64,000 nt of DNA, taken from positions 1-64,000 of the IMG/VR virus record IMGVR_UViG_3300031963_000080, one strand, 5' to 3'. This document shows, one piece after another, positions 5,685 to 26,096 of this stretch; position 1 is the first letter of the stretch; each line of letters opens with the position of its first letter. The DNA comes from a virus. Lineage: Duplodnaviria > Caudoviricetes. The notes under the pieces are model-generated. The model had not been told where the DNA came from. It did not search any database and saw only the letters and a list, made by a program, of their open reading frames with translations. A program made the position numbers and the translations under genes.

Positions 5685-5954
5685 TTATCCTTGATAAGGG
5701 TGTTGTTGTTTAAGTACAGAATTTGGTTGTGAAGGAACAACTGGGTTCCTTGATTTATTTTTAATAACGATGAAAGCATCGTTTTGATATGTTACTGTTC
5801 CAAATGGTTTTGCCCATTTTGGATTTGCCTCTGGGCTAGTAGGAGTTCCAGTAACTGCCACTCCACCAATTTCAACTGAGATATTATCATCTTTATCCCA
5901 TCCAAGTGTTTCAAGAGCAATTGCAAATTGCCCTAGCATACCAGCAGTGCTCAC
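5685..5954 (-). CDS. Hypothetical cyanophage protein
   Basis: ORF-track 5685..6011; GTG at 5954 overlapping the petF stop is the likelier start. Confidence 0.7.
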
Positions 5955-6244: not shown

Positions 6245-6330
6245 CAGTAAGTTTCAGATAGTTTGTTTACAGAGTGCGCCAATAGAACGAGAAAGGCGAC
6301 ACTAGTTATTGTAAAGATAATTGGTGCCAT
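6244..6330 (-). CDS. 28-aa hydrophobic peptide ([28 protein letters not shown])
   Basis: Its TGA overlaps the petF ATG (TGATG); single TM helix. Confidence 0.55.
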
Positions 6331-6343
6331 TGTCAATCAATTG

Positions 6344-6553
6344 TCAGAAGATGCCGAAGAAGAGATTGCCAGTGAGAGCGTAAGAAATAGCACCAGCAAC
6401 AATACCGACCATAGCCCAGCGTCCATTCATTTTCTCCGCCTTCTCGGCATAAGGTTCGATACCATAACGATCAAGATCTTCTTTTGTCATATACATCGAT
6501 GGTTCTTTAGCAAACATATTCATTTGCCCAAACTCATTTTTTGTTACCGTCAT
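6344..6553 (-). CDS. hli: High-light-inducible protein (long form)
   Basis: AEKMNGRWAMVG motif with a GQMNMFAKEP N-terminal extension. Confidence 0.92.
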   Translation of the reverse strand: MTVTKNEFGQMNMFAKEPSMYMTKEDLDRYGIEPYAEKAEKMNGRWAMVGIVAGAISYALTGNLFFGIF

Positions 6554-6579
6554 TGTGTTTTGTAAAGATTTACAACAAT

Positions 6580-6608
6580 AGTATATAGTAAAGAAGAGAG
6601 CCTGTCAA
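6580..6608 (-). promoter_or_regulatory. Sigma70-type promoter for the hli-petF-hli operon
   Basis: TTGACA-17 nt-TATACT. Confidence 0.8.
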
Positions 6609-6639
6609 GACCCTCTTGTTGCAGTTTTCTAACTGTCTA

Positions 6640-8109
6640 TCAGAACTTAAAGGTCGTTTGTAGGACCCCACCCCAGTTAGAGGAGTTGCCAGCAAGGCGC
6701 TGATTGTCGCTACCATAGATGATAGCAGGAGTGACGCTGATGTTATCAGACACTTGGTACTTGTAGAAGATTTCGAGCATCGTTGCCTTCTCAAGGTTCT
6801 CACCAGTAGGTGCCTGACCGATAGCAACACCAGCAGAGTTACCATCAATAAATACATCATCCCAAGTCAGACCAGCAAACCAGGACTGACTGTTGGTAGC
6901 AGCACTTTCAGTACCACTTACAGTATTCCAACCATAACCACCAGAGATAGAGGGAACCCAACCAGATTGAGTAGGTTGCCAATATGCGTTGATGGCATAA
7001 CCATTAGAGGTTTGCCCAGGAACCAGAGAACCAGAAGCACCGTTCAGACCGTTGTAGGTGCGAACGCGAGTGCCTTCAGTACCATAACGATAACCGAATG
7101 CAGCACCCCAGTTATCACCACGGTAACCAACTTGTGCCAAAGTATTAAGAGCACCAGACTTATCAAACTCACCAGTAGAACTATCGGCACCATTCTGTGC
7201 CACATAGTTTACACCAGCAACAAGACCTTTCTTACCATACTGGATACCAAAACCAGAACCAGTTGCCTTGTTATAAACGCCAGGAGCACCTGCTACTTGG
7301 AAGAAGTCAAGAATGTTTGACTTGTAAGCAGTAGGAATCCAAGCAATCTCAGTATTACGAACCAGAGCACCAGCAGTCAGGGTAGTGCTACCGTTAAATA
7401 CAGGGAACTGATAGAACAGACGGTCGATAACTACATTGTTACCAACTTCACTAGTAGTGTTGTCTGCCTTGTCGAGCTTAAAAATTGATGAACTGGAACC
7501 AAAAGGATCACCACTGAAGTTAGAAGAACGCAGACGAGTGCGTAGAAGGTCAGCACCAGTAAACGAAGTATCCAGATTCAAACGCAGATCATAGTTGAAT
7601 GCAGTGCGAGTGATGTCGCCAGTTTTGGTCTGGTAGTCATCAACACCGCCGATCACGAAGTTTGCTTCACCACGCAGTTTGGTTGTGGTGGAGAACTGTT
7701 GCGCTTCAAGAATAGTAACCTGTGCTTCCAGTTTATCTACACGACCACGAAGAACAGCAAGTTCTTGTGCGAATTCTGCTTGAAGGCGCTTCAGTTCATC
7801 AGTAACTTCGGTTACACGATCGAGGCAAGCATTCAGAAGTGCTGCTGCTTCATATCGAGTCATTGCACTACCACCACGGAAGGTGCCGTTAGGATAACCA
7901 GCAACGCAACCATAACGCTCTACTAGTTGCGAAAGTGCCTGATATGCCCAGTCAGTTGGTTGTACATCAGAGAATTGAGTAACACTCGTGACCTGTTCTG
8001 AAGAGTATTGGCTGACTGCTGCCATGTTCAAGTCTTTGGCACCCGCAGCAACAGGAGTAACCATTCCTAGAGCAACAGGTGCAAGAATCAGTCGTTGAAA
8101 AAATTTCAT
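6640..8109 (-). CDS. Cyanobacterial outer-membrane porin (SLH domain plus OprB-like barrel; Som/iron-uptake porin family)
   Basis: Signal peptide MKFFQRLILAPVALG, FSDVQPTDWAYQAL SLH motif, QQFSTTTKLRGE, C-terminal TTFKF. Confidence 0.93.
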   Translation of the reverse strand: MKFFQRLILAPVALGMVTPVAAGAKDLNMAAVSQYSSEQVTSVTQFSDVQPTDWAYQALSQLVERYGCVAGYPNGTFRGGSAMTRYEAAALLNACLDRVTEVTDELKRLQAEFAQELAVLRGRVDKLEAQVTILEAQQFSTTTKLRGEANFVIGGVDDYQTKTGDITRTAFNYDLRLNLDTSFTGADLLRTRLRSSNFSGDPFGSSSSIFKLDKADNTTSEVGNNVVIDRLFYQFPVFNGSTTLTAGALVRNTEIAWIPTAYKSNILDFFQVAGAPGVYNKATGSGFGIQYGKKGLVAGVNYVAQNGADSSTGEFDKSGALNTLAQVGYRGDNWGAAFGYRYGTEGTRVRTYNGLNGASGSLVPGQTSNGYAINAYWQPTQSGWVPSISGGYGWNTVSGTESAATNSQSWFAGLTWDDVFIDGNSAGVAIGQAPTGENLEKATMLEIFYKYQVSDNISVTPAIIYGSDNQRLAGNSSNWGGVLQTTFKF

Positions 8110-19799: not shown

Positions 19800-19955
19800 C
19801 AGGTCTGCCATGCACGCCACCAATTCTTTAACTGGAAATTGGAAACCAGGCGGGAGTAACCTCCACATCCGCACCAGTCGTCATATTTAATGTCCATACG
19901 ACGAGGACAATTTTGGGTCACAATTGGCTCCACCACTTAGTTTTGAGAAACTAAG
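19800..19955 (-). ncRNA. Structured RNA with tandem H-type pseudoknots and UGGYG motifs (wcaG/manA-like cyanophage motif)
   Basis: GUCC/GGAC with CGUCGUAU/AUAUGACG; CUGG/CCAG with CCAAUUU/GAAUUGG; located upstream of a sugar-nucleotide operon. Family assignment is from memory. Confidence 0.65.
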
Positions 19956-20446: not shown

Positions 20447-20520
20447 TGGTTGAATTTGATTCGTTCCTATTATAAGAGAGAATTGGTGAGATGTCAAGGG
20501 GCACCAAGAATAAAATTTTC

Positions 20521-21099
20521 TTATCTAAGTTTTGGGCCACGCATCCAAGTAACTAACGATAATCTAGTCCCACTTAATACCTTTGAAACTCTATGTGGAA
20601 GCCTAGAATCGAAAATCGTTATAGATCCTTTAGTTCTAGAAATTGAAGTAATGTTTGCATGATAATCAATTAATTGCAATTCTCCGCCATCATATTCGGA
20701 TTCATCTGAAATGAGTAGAGAAGCAGACAATTTTCTAGTATATGCTGAGTCATCTAGACCATAATCACAATGCCAATTATAGTGCCCATTTTGATCATAT
20801 TTACTAACTTGTATTGACTCTATTCCCGCCAAATCATATTCCCAACATTCTCTATTAGCTTTTTCGAAATAATGACGGAACATGGAGCATATCCAATGAT
20901 CGTCCTGTAGCCAGTATATAGTGGAATCTCTGATATTTTTCAAATTGGGGGAATCTTCTTCTTCGTTTGCTGTGGTGCCAACCAAAAAAGAATCTGGGTC
21001 AATGATTTTTATTTCTTTTATCATCATGTCAATCAATTCCGATGGTATTACCTCCGAATAATAAACATAAGATGATGCTTCTTTGTCGTAATATGTCAT
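20521..21099 (-). CDS. 2OG-Fe(II) oxygenase (prolyl-4-hydroxylase/PKHD-like)
   Basis: WHCD (HxD), RKLS, YDGGEL, PHRV, GTRLSLVTW. Confidence 0.9.
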   Translation of the reverse strand: MTYYDKEASSYVYYSEVIPSELIDMMIKEIKIIDPDSFLVGTTANEEEDSPNLKNIRDSTIYWLQDDHWICSMFRHYFEKANRECWEYDLAGIESIQVSKYDQNGHYNWHCDYGLDDSAYTRKLSASLLISDESEYDGGELQLIDYHANITSISRTKGSITIFDSRLPHRVSKVLSGTRLSLVTWMRGPKLR

Positions 21100-21115
21100 A
21101 AAAATATATTAAATA

Positions 21116-21328
21116 TCAGCTTCCTTCTTCATGATCGGTATGAATTCTGATAAGATCGTCATCAGAACAAGTTCCACCAAATACTTCTACCATTTCATTA
21201 TATGGAACCATAATTGCATTTCCATGCTCACTTGTTATAATTAATGATTCACCATTTTCTACTCTTTCCATCAAATAGTCAAAATCAGATTGAAATTCTT
21301 CTACTGTAAATGATTGAAGTTCTGCCAT
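21116..21328 (-). CDS. Small protein resembling the Phd/YefM antitoxin N-terminal domain
   Basis: FTVEEFQSDFDYLMERVENGESLIITSEHGNAIMVPY. Confidence 0.6.
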   Translation of the reverse strand: MAELQSFTVEEFQSDFDYLMERVENGESLIITSEHGNAIMVPYNEMVEVFGGTCSDDDLIRIHTDHEEGS

Positions 21329-21372
21329 TTTTATGAAATTAAATTTACACAGATTAGGTAACAAATTCCTAA

Positions 21373-21448
21373 TCCGGATACTCAGATTTGAACTGAGATT
21401 ATTCCTGCTCCCAAAGCAGGTGCCATGACCAAGTTAGGCGATATCCGG
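21373..21448 (-). tRNA. tRNA-Pro(TGG)
   Basis: Cloverleaf; CCTGC-TT TGG GA-GCAGG anticodon arm; GTTCAAAT T-loop. Confidence 0.92.
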
Positions 21449-21680
21449 GAATTTAAGCTATTTATTATTTGAGTGTATGACCATAATACCAAAGATAGGA
21501 ACCATTGTCAAGAGAAAACAGAGAGTCCCTAAAAATAGACTATTGTTTAATAGTGTTCCAATCAGATGTCCCATTCTTCTTTTTCGTCTTCATAAGTACA
21601 TGGTTCTTCAAAGAGTTCAATCATTTTTTGCTGTAGAACTCTCTGTTGCAATTTTTCTATATCTTCTTCTGTTAATTCAA

Positions 21681-21839
21681 TCACTTATATTTGCCTTCTC
21701 CTCCAAGAAATTTTTCTAGTGGATCTTTTCTTGTTTTTGATATTTCCACGGCTCTTTTATAAAACATATTATCCGTATTACCAGAAGCTTCGAATGTGGC
21801 TTTTATTTTTAACCAATTTTCGTATGTCCGTTGGTCCAT
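21681..21839 (-). CDS. Small hypothetical protein (MDQRTYENWLKIKATFEASGNTDNMFYKRA...)
   Basis: 52-aa ORF in gene-dense orientation; further short ORFs follow at about 21460-21684. Confidence 0.6.
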   Translation of the reverse strand: MDQRTYENWLKIKATFEASGNTDNMFYKRAVEISKTRKDPLEKFLGGEGKYK

Positions 21840-21907
21840 TAGAATATATCATATTATCACTAATTATAATTGGTAAATTCTCAGTGTCAATCATATGTCA
21901 CGAAATC

Positions 21908-22279
21908 TTAATAACCGTGATTGATAATAGTTTTCGTGTACTTCCTTAAAATCTCTCCGGCTCTAGAATTTGCTTCATTTTCGCATTCACTTCCAGTTTC
22001 TCCGCTCATTTCTTTTCCACTTTGTTTTTGATGATAATGTACAAGTTCATGCGCAAGAGTTCTATAAACATCTAATGGATGTCTTTGTGCAGTCTGAATT
22101 TTAATCTCGTCCGTGCCAAGATTAAAACAACCAAAAGTTTTATTGTCAATTGAGAACTTGGGATCATCTATTACAATAACTTTTGGTAAAGTAGATAACC
22201 CAAGTTCATCCTTGACAAAATTCATAAAATCTTTAACTTGAACCTTTTTTGATTCAGTAAGAAACTCTTTGAATCTCAT
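21908..22279 (-). CDS. Zincin-like metallopeptidase domain protein with a capsid-targeting-like N-terminus
   Basis: TLAHELVH (HExxH) plus downstream ENEAN; starts MRFKEFLTE. Confidence 0.75.
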   Translation of the reverse strand: MRFKEFLTESKKVQVKDFMNFVKDELGLSTLPKVIVIDDPKFSIDNKTFGCFNLGTDEIKIQTAQRHPLDVYRTLAHELVHYHQKQSGKEMSGETGSECENEANSRAGEILRKYTKTIINHGY

Positions 22280-22294
22280 GAGTTTTTTATGTAT

Positions 22295-22546
22295 TTATCT
22301 GACTTCAAAATCTAATCTACGAACCTTTCTTTGTCTTCTGGCCTCCTGCCACATAATGTCTTCATTTGTTAATACTTTTGTTGATTCTTTTTGTGCGGGA
22401 GAATTCAACATGACAATTTTCGATAAATCTACTGCAGATATTTTATCTTCTTTTATTGTTGCCATATTGGGACAACCACAAGACTTCGACTGGCCAGGTC
22501 TTGCCGTCACTTCAGTATTGCACTGTTTGCATCTTATCTTTAACAT
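22295..22546 (-). CDS. Hypothetical Cys-rich (Zn-binding) protein
   Basis: CKQC...CGC; late promoter TATAAATA at 22577-22584. Confidence 0.75.
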   Translation of the reverse strand: MLKIRCKQCNTEVTARPGQSKSCGCPNMATIKEDKISAVDLSKIVMLNSPAQKESTKVLTNEDIMWQEARRQRKVRRLDFEVR

Positions 22547-22645
22547 TTCTATTCATTATGAATATTTGCGTTTGATTATTTATAATAAAAAAGCCCACGC
22601 AATGTGAGCTTTTAAAGAATAGATATAAGATTTAACATATTTTAA

Positions 22646-22718
22646 CTCCCCCAGTCCGACTCGAACGAACAACCCCAGAGTTAACAGCTCCGTGCTCTGC
22701 CAATTGAGCTATAGGGGA
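22646..22718 (-). tRNA. tRNA-Asn(GTT)
   Basis: TCCCCTA/TGGGGGA acceptor stem; CT GTT AA loop. Confidence 0.93.
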
Positions 22719-22722
22719 ATGT

Positions 22723-22792
22723 AGGAAGTTACTGGACTTACACCAGTTCGAAGGGCATTGTCTGCTTGTCTCGATTCTTTGACTTAACTTCC
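22723..22792 (-). ncRNA. tRNA-like element with an aberrant anticodon arm
   Basis: GGAAGUU/AACUUCC acceptor stem, GUC/GAC D-like arm, ACUGG-UGUAAGU-CCAGU T-like arm, only a GCA-GACAA-UGC mini anticodon arm. Confidence 0.55.
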
Positions 22793-22832
22793 TTTGGTCT
22801 TCAGTTAGGATACATACCTAACAAACACCAAA

Positions 22833-22903
22833 AGCGAAATACGGGATTCGAACCCGTGACACCAACTTGGAAGGATGGGATGTTACCACTACACCAATTT
22901 CGC
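22833..22903 (-). tRNA. tRNA-Gly(TCC)
   Basis: GCGAAAT/ATTTCGC-T; CT TCC AA loop; GGTTCGAATCC. Confidence 0.93.
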
Positions 22904-22946
22904 AATAAAACAATCATACCATATTTATGAATGACTGCCAAACTTA

Positions 22947-23141
22947 TCAAGAGTTTTTTTGTATTACTTCAAGATCAGTTCCAATAGCACGAAGCCATGT
23001 ATTTAAATTCTCCATAACAAATTCATCATCTGGATTTTCAAAATTGATACGAATATCACGGATTGTATCGTGGTTTTCATTCCTGGCGGAATAACCAAGA
23101 TCATAGTTTGTGTTCACAACTTGTTTTTTGGGCATAATCAA
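22947..23141 (-). CDS. Hypothetical protein within the tRNA cluster
   Basis: 64-aa ORF; late-type motif upstream. Confidence 0.6.
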   Translation of the reverse strand: MIMPKKQVVNTNYDLGYSARNENHDTIRDIRINFENPDDEFVMENLNTWLRAIGTDLEVIQKNS

Positions 23142-23176
23142 TTAAGAATGTAATACGGAGATATTTCAGTATCTCA

Positions 23177-23256
23177 TGCTCGAAACAGGAGTCGAACCTG
23201 CAAGCCGAAGCGGTTGATTTTGAGTCAACTGTGTATACCAATTCCACCATTCGAGC
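23177..23256 (-). tRNA. tRNA-Leu(CAA)
   Basis: GTTGA-CT CAA AA-TCAAC arm and a variable arm. Confidence 0.92.
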
Positions 23257-23296
23257 TGGCGTCTCAGGTTGGATTCGAACCAACGACCAACTGCTT
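23257..23296 (-). pseudogene. 3' half of the interrupted tRNA-Arg(TCT) (position 37 to CCA)
   Basis: AAGCAGTTGGTCGTTGGTTCGAATCCAACCTGAGACGCCA; CTGAGAC pairs with GTCTCAG at 23895-23901. Confidence 0.88.
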
Positions 23297-23710
23297 ATCA
23301 GGAATACTAAGATAATCTTCAGCCAAGTTTATACCAATTTTTTGATTATTCTTGGGAGGAACTAATCTTAGGACAAATGTGTTACTACAATCATTTGGAT
23401 TTATGTAGTAACACATATCTGTGTCTGGACAGTAGACGCACATTACATCAATTTCATTTTTATCATAATTTTGAGTATGTGTTCCATTTTTATCTGTCCA
23501 GCAAGTCCTGAATGGAACTTCTATTTTACCATCTTTTGATGCTCTATACTTGACTTGAACTCTTAAAAAGTTTCCATCTTTGTAGGCAACAAGATCAAAG
23601 GCAGAATGTTCTGTATGAGGAGTAAGAATTAAGTATCCTTTCTCATATAGATCAAGTTGTGCTTTTAGGACTCCAAGATCTCCTTTGTTTTTAGTATGAT
23701 GTTCCCTCAT
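23264..23710 (-). CDS. PD-(D/E)XK homing endonuclease, I-Ssp6803I-like (group I intron-associated family)
   Basis: TKNKGDLG...FDLV...RVQVK...Y...IDVMCVY pattern matches my recollection of I-Ssp6803I; late promoter TATAAATA at 23732-23739. Confidence 0.85.
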   Translation of the reverse strand: MREHHTKNKGDLGVLKAQLDLYEKGYLILTPHTEHSAFDLVAYKDGNFLRVQVKYRASKDGKIEVPFRTCWTDKNGTHTQNYDKNEIDVMCVYCPDTDMCYYINPNDCSNTFVLRLVPPKNNQKIGINLAEDYLSIPDKQLVVGSNPT

Positions 23711-23864
23711 ACAAGTAACGATATCTCTTATTATTTATAAGAGTAGCAACTTACCAGTATGTTACTCAGAACAACCAACAGGCTCACCTGGAATCGAACC
23801 AGGGACATTCGCTTAGAAGGCGAAGGTTATATCCGCTTAACTATGAGCCCAAGCGGTTGTTCTA
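23297..23864 (-). mobile_element. 568-bp insertion (endonuclease plus replacement tRNA-Arg) in a tRNA-Arg(TCT) anticodon loop
   Basis: Bounded by the matching 5' and 3' halves of a tRNA. Confidence 0.8.
23779..23850 (-). tRNA. tRNA-Arg(TCT), intact copy inside the insertion
   Basis: GGGCTCA/TGAGCCT-G; TTCGC-CT TCT AA-GCGAA arm; GGTTCGATTCC. Confidence 0.93.
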
Positions 23865-23901
23865 AGAAATCAGATACTCTATCCAAGTGAGCTACTGAGA
23901 C
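23865..23901 (-). pseudogene. 5' half of the interrupted tRNA-Arg(TCT) (through the anticodon)
   Basis: GTCTCAGTAGCTCACTTGGATAGAGTATCTGATTTCT. Confidence 0.85.
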
Positions 23902-23939
23902 ATAAGACAATCATAAGACATTTATCTTAGATTGTCAAG

Positions 23940-24013
23940 TGGAAACACTGGGGATTGAACCCAGAACCTCACGCTTATAAGGCGTGTGCTCTAACCAGTT
24001 GAGCTATGTTTCC
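23940..24013 (-). tRNA. tRNA-Ile(TAT)
   Basis: CACGC-CT TAT AA-GCGTG arm; GGAAACA/TGTTTCC-A. Confidence 0.9.
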
Positions 24014-24052
24014 GATAAGACAATTATAAGGCAGAACCTTGGAATTGTCAAG

Positions 24053-24136
24053 TGCGAGTAGGGAGACTCGAACTCCCACGGGATTAACTCCCAACGGATT
24101 TTAAGTCCGGTGCGGCTACCATTACGCCATACTCGC
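24053..24136 (-). tRNA. tRNA-Leu(TAA)
   Basis: CGGA-CT TAA AA-TCCG, long variable arm, no intron. Confidence 0.93.
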
Positions 24137-24217
24137 GGATAAGACAATTATAGATCATAAGATCGAAATTGTCAAGTGTTAGAATCGGATCTCTCTCGAA
24201 CCAACACATACATCATA

Positions 24218-24619
24218 TCACTCTTTGGGGCAGCTGTCAACCCATGGGGCACACAACCTGATTTCTCCTCCAAGTGACCGACACTCATCAGTATAGCACA
24301 CAGAGGTGTCTACTGGTTTCTCTGAGAGTCGTGGTGGTGGAATTTTAACATGCCCACCATCTCCTGTCAAGCGTTCATAATCACTGATTGCTTTATCCAC
24401 GGTTCGCTCGACATCTCTTTCCAATATACCAGGATCTTTTTGAAGTTCTGGAATTAATGGAGAATCTGGTTGATATGTTTGGAGATATTCATAAACAATA
24501 TCCCAAATATGTTTTTGTTCTATCTTTAAGCAAGAGGAGAGTGATGCTATTATTAAAGATAGGACTACAATAGTTTTAATATGTGCTTTCTTTTTTCCTA
24601 CCTGAAAATTAAATTTCAT
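24218..24619 (-). CDS. Hypothetical protein with an N-terminal hydrophobic segment (possible lipoprotein)
   Basis: IVVLSLIIASLSSC and C-terminal cysteines. Confidence 0.7.
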   Translation of the reverse strand: MKFNFQVGKKKAHIKTIVVLSLIIASLSSCLKIEQKHIWDIVYEYLQTYQPDSPLIPELQKDPGILERDVERTVDKAISDYERLTGDGGHVKIPPPRLSEKPVDTSVCYTDECRSLGGEIRLCAPWVDSCPKE

Positions 24620-25376
24620 TTAAAAAAATTTTATTGTATACTTCACTATATGCATAATTATTACTAAATTTTCTAATCGGCATATTTAAATAATCGAATT
24701 TTTTATTGGTGATTTCTTCTGCAGCGATCAAAAATAAAGAAAAATAGTGCCAATGACAGGGAGGAATATACTGAGGAGATAAACACACAAAAATATAATC
24801 AAAATTATAATTATCGAAAATATATTGATCTCTAGTAAAATATTGAAATTTTGGTATGTGAGATTTTATAAAAGATTTTTTTGAATGAGAAAAATCAATA
24901 CTTTTTTCATTCCCAATAAAACTATAAGAATTAAGTTTATTCTGAATGTTCAATAATGATATCCAGTTACCTTCATGTACTATACTATTATATTTTATTT
25001 CATCGTAGCTACAAAACAAAGAATTCATCTCCGACTCATCTAAATCTTGGCTGTTTTCTGGTAAATCGGAAGGATATATTACATCATCATGATGATCTAT
25101 ATTAATCAATTCGATATCATCGTAGCGAATTAAATCATCTAGTATAGAATCATGATTATATGAAAACGAAATATTATGGCAAGTGCGAATTGCTCTTAAA
25201 AAAATGGAAAAGCAGTATTGTAAATTTTTTTCGTTAATTGGAAAATCATTTATATTTTTATTTTCGTGAAAATAATTTTTCCATCTTTTTGATGGATTAT
25301 CGTCATACCCAATTTCATGGTATGTCTCAATAGATGGTTCCATAATATAATCTAGATCTATACTAAGAGCTCTCAT
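24609..25376 (-). CDS. Hypothetical arginase/deacetylase-fold-like (UPF0489-like) protein
   Basis: SIDLDY, NIDHHDD, HEGNW, CLSPQY; AT-rich. Confidence 0.6.
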   Translation of the reverse strand: MRALSIDLDYIMEPSIETYHEIGYDDNPSKRWKNYFHENKNINDFPINEKNLQYCFSIFLRAIRTCHNISFSYNHDSILDDLIRYDDIELINIDHHDDVIYPSDLPENSQDLDESEMNSLFCSYDEIKYNSIVHEGNWISLLNIQNKLNSYSFIGNEKSIDFSHSKKSFIKSHIPKFQYFTRDQYIFDNYNFDYIFVCLSPQYIPPCHWHYFSLFLIAAEEITNKKFDYLNMPIRKFSNNYAYSEVYNKIFLNEI

Positions 25377-25427
25377 AATACAAAAAAATAGAGGAAAGAG
25401 TTTTGCTTCCCTCTATTTATTGTCGAA

Positions 25428-26096
25428 TTAAACTTCTACCATGATTAGTCGGTTAGCATACTCATGTGCATAAGATGTGCGAGCACCATGATGCCCCCAA
25501 CCAATCCAACTATACGCATAGTCCATGTAACGATTGATAGACTTACCAGGAGTTTTCATCCTGTCCTCAATTCGTTGCCATTGAACTTCAGTCGTTAGAT
25601 AACGAAGTTGCGTGTGAAGTGATGATGGAGAACCACCATGCCTCTTGGCAAAATCGCCCAATCCATAATAACGATCAGCAGATGTCCATTGAATCAATCC
25701 GTAACCACGACCGCAGTTACCCCAACTAGTTCTGCTACCACCTTCACAGATATTAGGCACGAAAGTGGATTCTTGTCTAATATTACCCATGATGGTAGCG
25801 AGGGCGTTTCTGTCTTTAACACCACGATCCTGGAAAAATGCCAGGGTAGCATTCTCATGTTCATTACACCCTTTACAAATTAGCCTTGTCTGTTTTGGCT
25901 TTGGTGATGCAACCTCTCGGATTGCTGTCTTCCTTTCATCTACAAGATCAAACTCTTTGATAATAACAAATGGTTTGGTTGTTGGGTCAACTGGGGGAGG
26001 AGGTCCCTGCATCTTGTAGTTGACGAATGGCAGTGATGCCGTACTGGTTGTAACCGCTGCCAAGATAGGCATGGCTACTGTAAAGAAATTTTGCAT
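25428..26096 (-). CDS. Phage-tail-type lysozyme / cell-wall hydrolase with signal peptide
   Basis: ATIMGNIRQES, GYGLIQWT, QLRYL. Confidence 0.8.
   Translation of the reverse strand: MQNFFTVAMPILAAVTTSTASLPFVNYKMQGPPPPVDPTTKPFVIIKEFDLVDERKTAIREVASPKPKQTRLICKGCNEHENATLAFFQDRGVKDRNALATIMGNIRQESTFVPNICEGGSRTSWGNCGRGYGLIQWTSADRYYGLGDFAKRHGGSPSSLHTQLRYLTTEVQWQRIEDRMKTPGKSINRYMDYAYSWIGWGHHGARTSYAHEYANRLIMVEV

Follow-up and report, generated by a model that had tools for sequence, protein, structure and literature searches.

Introduction

How can a homing endonuclease gene persist in the anticodon loop of a transfer RNA (tRNA) gene without a splicing element? The question is raised by a locus in 64,000 nt of phage DNA (Caudoviricetes; positions 1 to 64,000 of the IMG/VR record IMGVR_UViG_3300031963_000080), in the following called the window. 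On its minus strand a tRNA-Arg(TCT) gene, here named the outer tRNA, is split by a cassette of 568 bp, which carries a second, intact tRNA-Arg(TCT) gene (inner tRNA) and an open reading frame (ORF) for a PD-(D/E)XK endonuclease. We regard it as probable that the cassette is a homing element that has no intron and resides in tRNA-Arg(TCT) genes of cyanophages; it would break its target and replace it by its own tRNA. To our knowledge, homing endonucleases are thought to survive in needed genes only within a self-splicing intron or intein, and otherwise to stay intergenic.

A break-and-replace strategy without splicing had been proposed in a preliminary description made from the letters of the window. 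It is supported by an empty site in a relative, the family match of the nuclease, the absence of a ribozyme and the fact that no splicing of the outer tRNA was seen in RNA contigs. The viral record to which the window belongs has 79 kb and is a metagenome-derived fragment judged 41% complete. Relatives of the window are T4-like cyanophages, and the runs holding the sequence come from freshwater and lake samples.

Results

Copies of the cassette in other phages

Nested copies were identified by protein, leader-pattern and trailer-pattern searches. Besides the window (loci are numbered with L), they were found in the isolated Synechococcus phage Sf-FR1 (L002) and in L004 (=L017), L005 (=L015), L016, L019, L020/L022, L021, L139/L140 and L141. 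L018, located at a contig end, shows the same left junction and upstream sequence as L004. Sf-FR1 matches the window at 23301-23868 with 92.4% identity and nowhere else nearby; the ends of this match nearly coincide with those of the insert. The cassette measures exactly 568 bp in the window, L004, L005 and L020. Full-length copies are 92-99.5% identical, and leader plus inner tRNA 95-100%. For the outer tRNA halves the identity between copies is 71-88% (92% for the pair L004/L005), and for the 300 nt beyond them about 50%, which is the random level without alignment. The neighbours vary by copy and include tRNA-Ile, tRNA-Tyr, an HNH ORF, a 2OG-Fe(II) oxygenase and other genes. The left junction is identical in all nested copies, and the right junction in all eight copies that have it on the contig. 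Judged from these identities, the cassette is a discrete, recently spread mobile unit.

Two further observations were made on the copies. The nuclease takes its C-terminal tail from whatever follows the cassette, i.e. the outer 3' half or, in Sf-FR1, a tRNA-Val. In L141 (about 6614-6745) an HNH-type ORF ends approximately 8 nt before the outer 5' half of the nested PD-(D/E)XK cassette, so that two different nuclease genes flank one broken tRNA-Arg.

Empty sites

Viral contigs were searched with patterns of the two outer halves. The 5'-half pattern with two free positions gave 74 contigs and the 3'-half pattern 41; the exact 25-nt 5'-half pattern was found in none. Among these 115 contigs, 105 carry an uninterrupted tRNA-Arg(TCT), four a tRNA-Arg(CCT), five a gene with a group I intron and one a gene with a 47-nt insert.

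L135 is a syntenic empty site. It contains tRNA-Leu(TAA), an identical tRNA-Ile(TAT), a promoter differing from that of the window at one base, the intact tRNA-Arg(TCT) and tRNA-Leu(CAA). Thus, the uninterrupted tRNA-Arg beginning with GTCTCAG, which the preliminary description had expected in relatives, exists between the same tRNA-Ile(TAT) and tRNA-Leu(CAA). Between window and L135, 7 of 37 sites differ in the 5' half (positions 10-32) and 3 of 40 in the 3' half (positions 41-47). All ten differences lie in tRNA positions 10-47, and none in 1-9 or 48-76. The flanks differ at one position in 113 nt upstream and at two in the downstream tRNA-Leu. With the insertion point at its centre, this patch of ten differences has the appearance of a co-conversion tract left by homing. 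It resembles a common allele with the 5' strand TCTGC and the 3' sequence GCAGT-TGGTC, which is carried by 35 of the 74 contigs.

The nuclease

The proposed assignment of the ORF to the PD-(D/E)XK endonucleases of the I-Ssp6803I family was borne out. It matches the Pfam profile PF11645 (PDDEXK_5) with E 4.6e-38 and 130.8 bits (cut-off 26.1), residues 4-134 covering profile positions 1-136 of 138. The structure of I-Ssp6803I (2OST chain A) matches at E 7.8e-6, and FDLV/VQVK of the ORF align with YDLV/VQVK. The core residues of the D...(E/Q)xK type (D...QVK) are presumably the catalytic ones. The conserved protein ends with ...SIP at 23300. In isolate phages, a protein search gave Sf-FR1 as the only close relative (89%), followed by Acinetobacter phage Herod (41%). 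Enzymes of the I-Ssp6803I type are tetramers cutting a long pseudo-palindromic site in the anticodon region of tRNA genes. For I-Ssp6803I itself, a pseudo-palindromic site of 23 bp is described (PMC3384342), and the title of a reference names the tRNA-fMet anticodon region as target.

Between cassette copies dN/dS is 0.08-0.29, with dS up to 0.34; these values indicate a nuclease that is maintained by selection. In two copies the gene is damaged, with the inner tRNA and both outer halves kept. L019 has lost the first two-thirds of it, and L016 the whole gene, leaving an insert of only 129 nt that consists mostly of the inner tRNA. Such deletions would be expected as late stages of a homing cycle.

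Free-standing relatives

Nuclease homologues with 80-83% protein identity were found in L006-L011 (seven full-length matches) and in L012 and L013, which are cut by contig ends. In L006-L013 the nuclease gene lies directly downstream of an unsplit tRNA-Arg(TCT), and outer halves are absent. Like the inner tRNA, this tRNA-Arg belongs to the GGGC...GCCTG type. The slot behind the tRNA-Arg is filled in other phages by an HNH ORF, the tRNA gene being interrupted there by an intron. From these arrangements, the pair of tRNA and nuclease probably existed first as a free-standing module, and the linked tRNA would predate the nested form.

Although unrelated, the PD-(D/E)XK ORFs of L006-L011 and the HNH ORFs of L045/L063 each extend into the TTGACA promoter that follows them; the C-terminal tails of the free-standing nucleases are therefore arbitrary. 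Furthermore, an abiF RNA motif (Rfam RF03085, 46.6-53.8 bits) was detected just upstream of the tRNA-Arg in L006 (1825-1861), L008 (944-980) and L045 (9419-9455). It thus occurs in loci with free-standing nuclease and in intron-bearing loci, and is not present in the window.

Architecture of the locus

The window holds seven tRNAs, and the cassette lies in a tRNA cluster of the minus strand (Table 1). There the promoter is followed by the outer 5' half, the cassette and the outer 3' half, and tRNA-Leu(CAA) follows directly. The coordinates previously given for both halves, their separation by 568 bp and the inner tRNA-Arg(TCT) were all correct on the minus strand, as checked by sequence reading, ARAGORN and Rfam. 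After the halves were rejoined by script, ARAGORN called a tRNA-Arg(tct). This call, and the uninterrupted tRNA-Arg(TCT) in 105 of the 115 contigs retrieved with the half patterns, speak for more than a chance resemblance. For the insertion junction two registers fit equally well (36/37 or 35/36); the anticodon arm is near-palindromic, with the junction at its dyad. The outer 3' half (23296-23257) reads AA, GCAGT, TGGTC, the T arm GTTGG/CCAAC, the acceptor strand CTGAGAC, G and CCA. The nuclease ORF takes its end from this half, as had been described: the last codon of the cassette is followed by ten codons of the 3' half and by the stop TGA (23266-23264) inside CTGAGAC.

Table 1 Features of the split tRNA-Arg(TCT) locus in the window
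Feature	Position	Strand	Remarks
Sigma-70-type promoter of the resident (outer) tRNA-Arg	23910..23938	-	TTGACA, 17 nt, TATGAT; 11/12 matches
Outer tRNA-Arg(TCT), 5' half, positions 1-36	23865..23901	-	GTCTCAG acceptor strand, D arm, TCTGA, loop T-T-TCT
Mobile cassette, 568 bp	23297..23864	-	Between tRNA positions 36 and 37
Cassette leader, 14 nt	23851..23864	-	
Clamp helix, 5' strand, 12 bp	23855..23866	-	Last two outer anticodon bases and leader; minimum-free-energy fold of 23901-23711
Inner intact tRNA-Arg(TCT), G1 to G73	23779..23850	-	CCA not encoded; Rfam tRNA 62.5 bits; ARAGORN 23778-23851
Clamp helix, 3' strand (trailer)	23765..23776	-	Pairs with 23855-23866 around the inner tRNA in the minimum-free-energy fold
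Conserved spacer hairpin	23725..23743	-	Holds TATAAATA (23739-23732), 21 nt before ATG
PD-(D/E)XK homing endonuclease ORF, 148 aa	23264..23710	-	Conserved part ends at 23300
Outer tRNA-Arg(TCT), 3' half, positions 37-73 and CCA	23257..23296	-	Weak Rfam tRNA match at 23260-23313, 21 bits
tRNA-Leu(CAA)	23177..23256	-	Abuts the outer tRNA-Arg; right side of the syntenic frame

The inner tRNA is the sole tRNA-Arg among the seven. In its anticodon arm the loop and the closing pair are retained; the remaining stem and the variable loop differ. Leader and trailer form an inverted repeat of 12 bp around the inner tRNA, here called the clamp, with a duplex energy of -20.9 kcal/mol. Leader and repeat were found in nested copies only. 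The repeat is perfect in L020, L016, L019 and Sf-FR1; the window deviates by a single G.U pair and L004 by a single A.C. No compensatory double change was found in the helix, so any function of the clamp would have to be deduced from its conservation. The spacer between inner tRNA and nuclease ORF comprises 68 nt. Its hairpin is kept, with changed stem bases, in the free-standing relatives L006-L013. Presumably, TATAAATA in this hairpin is a putative T4-type late promoter inside a regulatory hairpin, which it resembles.

In the window, three successive tRNA genes on the minus strand each have their own TTGACA-17-TATAAT promoter (24175-24147, 24051-24023 and 23938-23910, with 12, 12 and 11 of 12 matches), and the same tgtcttat stretch joins each of these promoters to the 5' end of its tRNA. 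The wcaG RNA motif (Rfam RF01761), which is associated with cyanophages, was detected at 19806-19910 (minus strand, 68.4 bits), and also in L016 (4207-4303) and L063 (3308-3402).

Transcripts and the fate of the inner tRNA

The coding strand of the cassette gave no promoter-like site, which leaves the promoter of the outer gene as the only one upstream of the cassette genes. Four metatranscriptome runs from four coded studies were compared at 90% likeness; all consist of contigs, giving neither strand nor abundance. Positions 23881-23965 are uncovered in all four, and this part is uninformative. Colinear contigs connect the outer 5' half with the cassette; at the other end, the nuclease gene, the outer 3' half and tRNA-Leu are likewise joined in colinear contigs.

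For X16, a contig of 673 nt identical to the window covers 23150-23778 and then 23851-23880. Its joint skips exactly 23779-23850, i.e. the inner tRNA from G1 to the discriminator G73, and no letters are shared at the joint. The same joint was found for X17, whose contig covers 23228-23778 followed by 16 letters equal to 23851-23866. The arms are short (30 letters in X16, one under the bridging rule, and 16 in X17), and neither piece contains a mismatch. The contig of X19 ends at 23778, and that of X15 runs into the inner tRNA. Most of the inner tRNA (23780-23839) is not covered in X16, X17 and X19.

A DNA variant without the inner tRNA is an unlikely source of this joint. All sampled words of 23150-24020 were present in 14 of 14 listed DNA runs (seven coded studies, all of them possible sources), and the inner tRNA was kept in all five viral contigs with the trailer. 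Since RNA contigs from two studies skip exactly G1 to G73, the inner tRNA is processed, and we conclude that it is excised at the positions of RNase P and RNase Z cleavage. The joint is either a reverse-transcriptase jump between fragments held by the clamp or a real religation.

In the latter case, the inner tRNA would be an excised 'intron': RNase P and RNase Z cut, the clamp holds the ends together, and a 3'-OH/5'-phosphate ligase reseals them in the cell to a 12-bp hairpin with a 6-nt loop. We consider this rather unlikely. No Rnl-type RNA ligase (PF09414) was matched in the 79-kb record or in the complete genome of Sf-FR1. PF09511 gave no match in either, and its control matched no genome. 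If religation were true, the outer 5' half, the nuclease message and the outer 3' half would be parts of one continuous RNA. This would be a ribozyme-free RNA splicing driven by tRNA-processing enzymes in a bacterial virus, and a new kind of RNA processing.

Absence of an intron

The cassette had been described as leaving no room for a ribozyme core. In agreement with this, no group I match to Rfam was obtained in 20500-25500 at E up to 10, and RF00028 was absent at its gathering score in the nested copies L004, L016, L019 and L020. The same model finds true introns in the same tRNA of other phages, which served as positive controls (63.2 bits in L045 and 66.5 bits in L063). Group I introns need a terminal G (omega G) and follow a 5' exon ending in U. 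The insert ends with ...GAT or ...GA, depending on the junction register, whereas the true tRNA-Arg introns end with ...GTAAG. A mobile group I intron was thus rejected, with no catalytic core matched and an insert ending in T or A. An archaeal or eukaryal tRNA intron spliced by proteins was rejected as well: the junction lies at 36/37 or 35/36 and not at the canonical 37/38, and a bulge-helix-bulge was not searched for.

No joint across 23297-23864 was found in the four RNA runs; as contigs, in which mature tRNAs are not expected, they agree with the predicted lack of a spliced outer tRNA and do not prove it. With the intron-aware mode of ARAGORN the split tRNA was not called at the default or the 90% threshold, and 80% gave only implausible calls on the opposite strand.

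Other interruptions of cyanophage tRNA genes were observed in the course of this search. In L045, L075, L083, L093 and L063 the same tRNA-Arg(TCT) is split between positions 34 and 35; the interruption is an ORF-less group I intron of about 200 nt. It occupies about bases 36-240 counted from the tRNA start, and an ORF with HNH motif begins about 40-50 nt past the tRNA. L047 holds a tRNA-Arg(TCT) (5789-5905) whose anticodon loop carries an insert of 47 nt, at the site that the cassette occupies elsewhere. This insert ends with the same ...GAT before AAGC and contains the T-arm-like GGTTCAATTCC; the whole is scored as a tRNA by Rfam (56.5 bits). The insert may have been left by a deleted cassette, or it may be a mini-element in its own right. 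Also in L047 (about 6290-6650), a tRNA-Leu-like gene is apparently interrupted by about 330 nt. No Rfam match to this insert was obtained at E up to 0.01, and its 3' part resembles the tRNA-Arg group I intron, with AGTCCAGACCACAAAC and GTGGTAAG in common.

Decay of the outer tRNA

Stem pairing was scored on a fixed cloverleaf with 21 stem pairs for the eight nested copies with both halves and for 104 intact genes. In the preliminary description, the mismatches in the rejoined anticodon stem of the window had been called consistent with decay or mixed alleles. U27.U43 belongs to a natural allele, which 35 of the 74 contigs have. A31.G39, with T32 beside it, is new; only the changes C31-to-A and C32-to-T are new in the window. 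A defect beyond U27.U43 was found in all eight nested copies, compared to 1 of the 104 intact genes. Of the latter, 55 show no unpaired stem position and 48 U27.U43 only; the single outlier probably reflects a register shift from a longer D-loop.

The extra defect is A31.G39 in the window, G at T-loop position 55 in L004, the same G plus a wrecked D arm in L005, A10 opposite C25 in L016, T10 opposite C25 in L019 and two acceptor mismatches in L020. In L139 and L141 the acceptor strands are unpaired, and ARAGORN finds no tRNA after rejoining. As the fixed register is off by one in these two, their defect is based on ARAGORN and on reading of the strands. Sf-FR1 retains about 10 nt of the outer 5' half and no 3' half. 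The pattern of these defects indicates that the outer tRNA-Arg gene is decaying and no longer maintained.

Discussion

A proposed break-and-replace cycle

The following cycle is proposed. In co-infecting phages whose tRNA-Arg(TCT) gene is uninterrupted, the enzyme would cut the near-palindromic anticodon arm of this gene. Repair would use the cassette-bearing genome as template, with the flanking tRNA halves as portable homology arms. The repaired gene, split at 36/37 (or, fitting equally, 35/36), would thereby become uncuttable. Its halves would never be spliced, and the lost function would be supplied by the tRNA of the cassette, whose gene would be immune to cleavage. Without an early promoter of its own, the cassette would borrow the strong promoter of the broken gene, which would drive the outer 5' half, the inner tRNA and an early nuclease transcript. 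The nuclease would probably be made late from the TATAAATA motif inside the hairpin. The nested form would be a derived state, able to enter any phage with the conserved tRNA, whatever the neighbouring genes.

A syntenic presence/absence polymorphism (L135) and an apparent co-conversion of the flanks, both criteria of intron-less homing, were found at this locus.

Objections and other explanations

Several points weigh against this cycle. With the record at 41% completeness, another tRNA-Arg(TCT) elsewhere in the phage is possible. All loci compared are uncultured contigs, except Sf-FR1 and S-BM3. Six of the eight rejoined outer tRNAs still pass ARAGORN, so the decay is mild. Covariation of the outer halves was seen between loci (ACTGC/GCAGT, ATTGC/GCAAT and ATTGT/ACAAT), the acceptor strands matching as well, and the otherwise nearly identical L004 and L005 differ by such a covarying double change. 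The covariation would also fit selection for pairing; we read it as the trace of repeated entry into different intact alleles. Finally, the free-standing L008/L009 and the nested L004 have one anticodon stem in common (ATTGC/GCAAT), which belongs to the tRNA next to the nuclease in the former and to the split outer tRNA in the latter. The stem sequence alone can therefore not explain why the inner tRNA gene would be immune.

The presence of this 'target' stem in L008 also fits another explanation. The nesting could have arisen once by illegitimate recombination and then have been carried along by ordinary recombination in the conserved tRNA, with the target of the nuclease elsewhere or without any target. 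The free-standing relatives show that the enzyme need not sit inside its target, and T4 SegB recognizes a T-loop motif of tRNA genes and not its own insertion site (PMC2330249). Against this explanation stand identical junctions in many unrelated contexts and a co-conversion tract centred on the junction. Furthermore, a junction at the dyad of the arm would be appropriate for a symmetric PD-(D/E)XK enzyme; the type member of the family is directed at a tRNA anticodon region, as the title of a reference says. The same arm is broken in other phages by a group I intron with an HNH neighbour. On balance, this explanation has a low probability.

The pairing of the halves, their covariation between loci and the six copies passing ARAGORN would suit an outer tRNA that still works. 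The insert would then be removed without a ribozyme: RNase P and RNase Z would cut at the inner tRNA, further trimming would follow, and an RNA ligase would join the halves to a second tRNA-Arg(TCT). Since the ends made at the inner tRNA were found joined in RNA contigs, a ligating activity is conceivable. However, no joint across the cassette was seen in the four RNA runs (contigs, in which short tRNAs are not expected), all eight outer copies are defective, in contrast to 103 of 104 intact genes without such defects, and two copies cannot fold. In Sf-FR1 the cassette is kept although the 3' half has been lost. No known splice signal is matched by the ends of the insert, a bulge-helix-bulge not having been searched for, and the anticodon is already supplied by the inner tRNA. 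A functional outer tRNA is thus very improbable. That the split is an assembly chimera or a rare defective genome, as might be supposed for a metagenome-derived fragment, has next to no probability, with all sampled words in each of the 14 DNA runs, and with contigs from many samples and the isolate Sf-FR1 showing the same architecture.

Comparison with known systems

The break-and-replace cycle shares single traits with several known systems. One of them is the collaborative homing suggested by L045, L063, L075, L083 and L093. The same loop of tRNA-Arg(TCT) is interrupted there only 1-2 nt away (34/35), with a nuclease just downstream. In contrast to the nuclease and tRNA cassette described here, the interruption in those phages is a self-splicing ribozyme (RF00028, 63-66 bits). 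F-CphI with the psbA intron is reportedly an example of collaborative homing.

The I-Ssp6803I system in the group I intron of Synechocystis tRNA-fMet has in common the protein family, the seat in a tRNA anticodon loop and a near-palindromic target arm (PMC3384342). It differs from the cassette, which has no ribozyme, does not end in G, carries a second tRNA and leaves the broken gene unrestored in RNA. T4 SegB is also a nuclease gene without splicing element in a phage tRNA cluster (PMC2330249; PMC2988022). Free-standing homing of the T4 type likewise spreads with neighbouring tRNAs, co-converts the flanks and is controlled by a hairpin with a late-promoter-like element (PMC2330249; PMC2988022). 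Unlike the cassette, SegB is a GIY-YIG enzyme located between tRNA genes and directed at a T-loop motif (PMC2330249); the cassette sits inside its presumed target and destroys it. In Aeromonas phage Aeh1, mobE lies in the middle of the needed gene nrdA without intron or intein (PMC2988022). There the protein pieces reassemble and work (PMC2988022), whereas the tRNA pieces around the cassette decay and a full spare is carried. A gene in pieces with functional halves was hence rejected for the outer tRNA, with an extra defect in all eight copies and the 3' half lost in Sf-FR1. Synthetic Cleave-and-Rescue (ClvR) drives also link the cleaver of an ordinary gene copy to a recoded, uncut copy (PMC10592828). 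They are engineered, have a fixed site and spread by killing non-carriers, whereas the natural cassette would copy itself into the cut site.

In the literature, searched mostly at the level of abstracts, no cassette of nuclease and tRNA nested in a tRNA gene and no tRNA excision with religation in phages was found described. The locus contributes a syntenic empty site with a putative co-conversion tract, a decay statistic against 104 intact genes, evidence for selection on the nuclease and RNA evidence for the precise release of the inner tRNA, together with the joint seen there.

Significance

One phage tRNA gene offers a compact test bed for comparing four states: intact, protected by an intron, a variant tRNA gene with the nuclease gene directly behind it, and nested. 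The break-and-replace cycle would explain how one cassette enters phages that have nothing but a conserved tRNA in common. The halves of the tRNA would become its homology arms, and the promoter of the broken gene would become its own. The cassette would be a natural counterpart of engineered cleave-and-rescue drives. It would thus represent a third route for homing endonucleases, in which a gene is broken and a spare is brought along.

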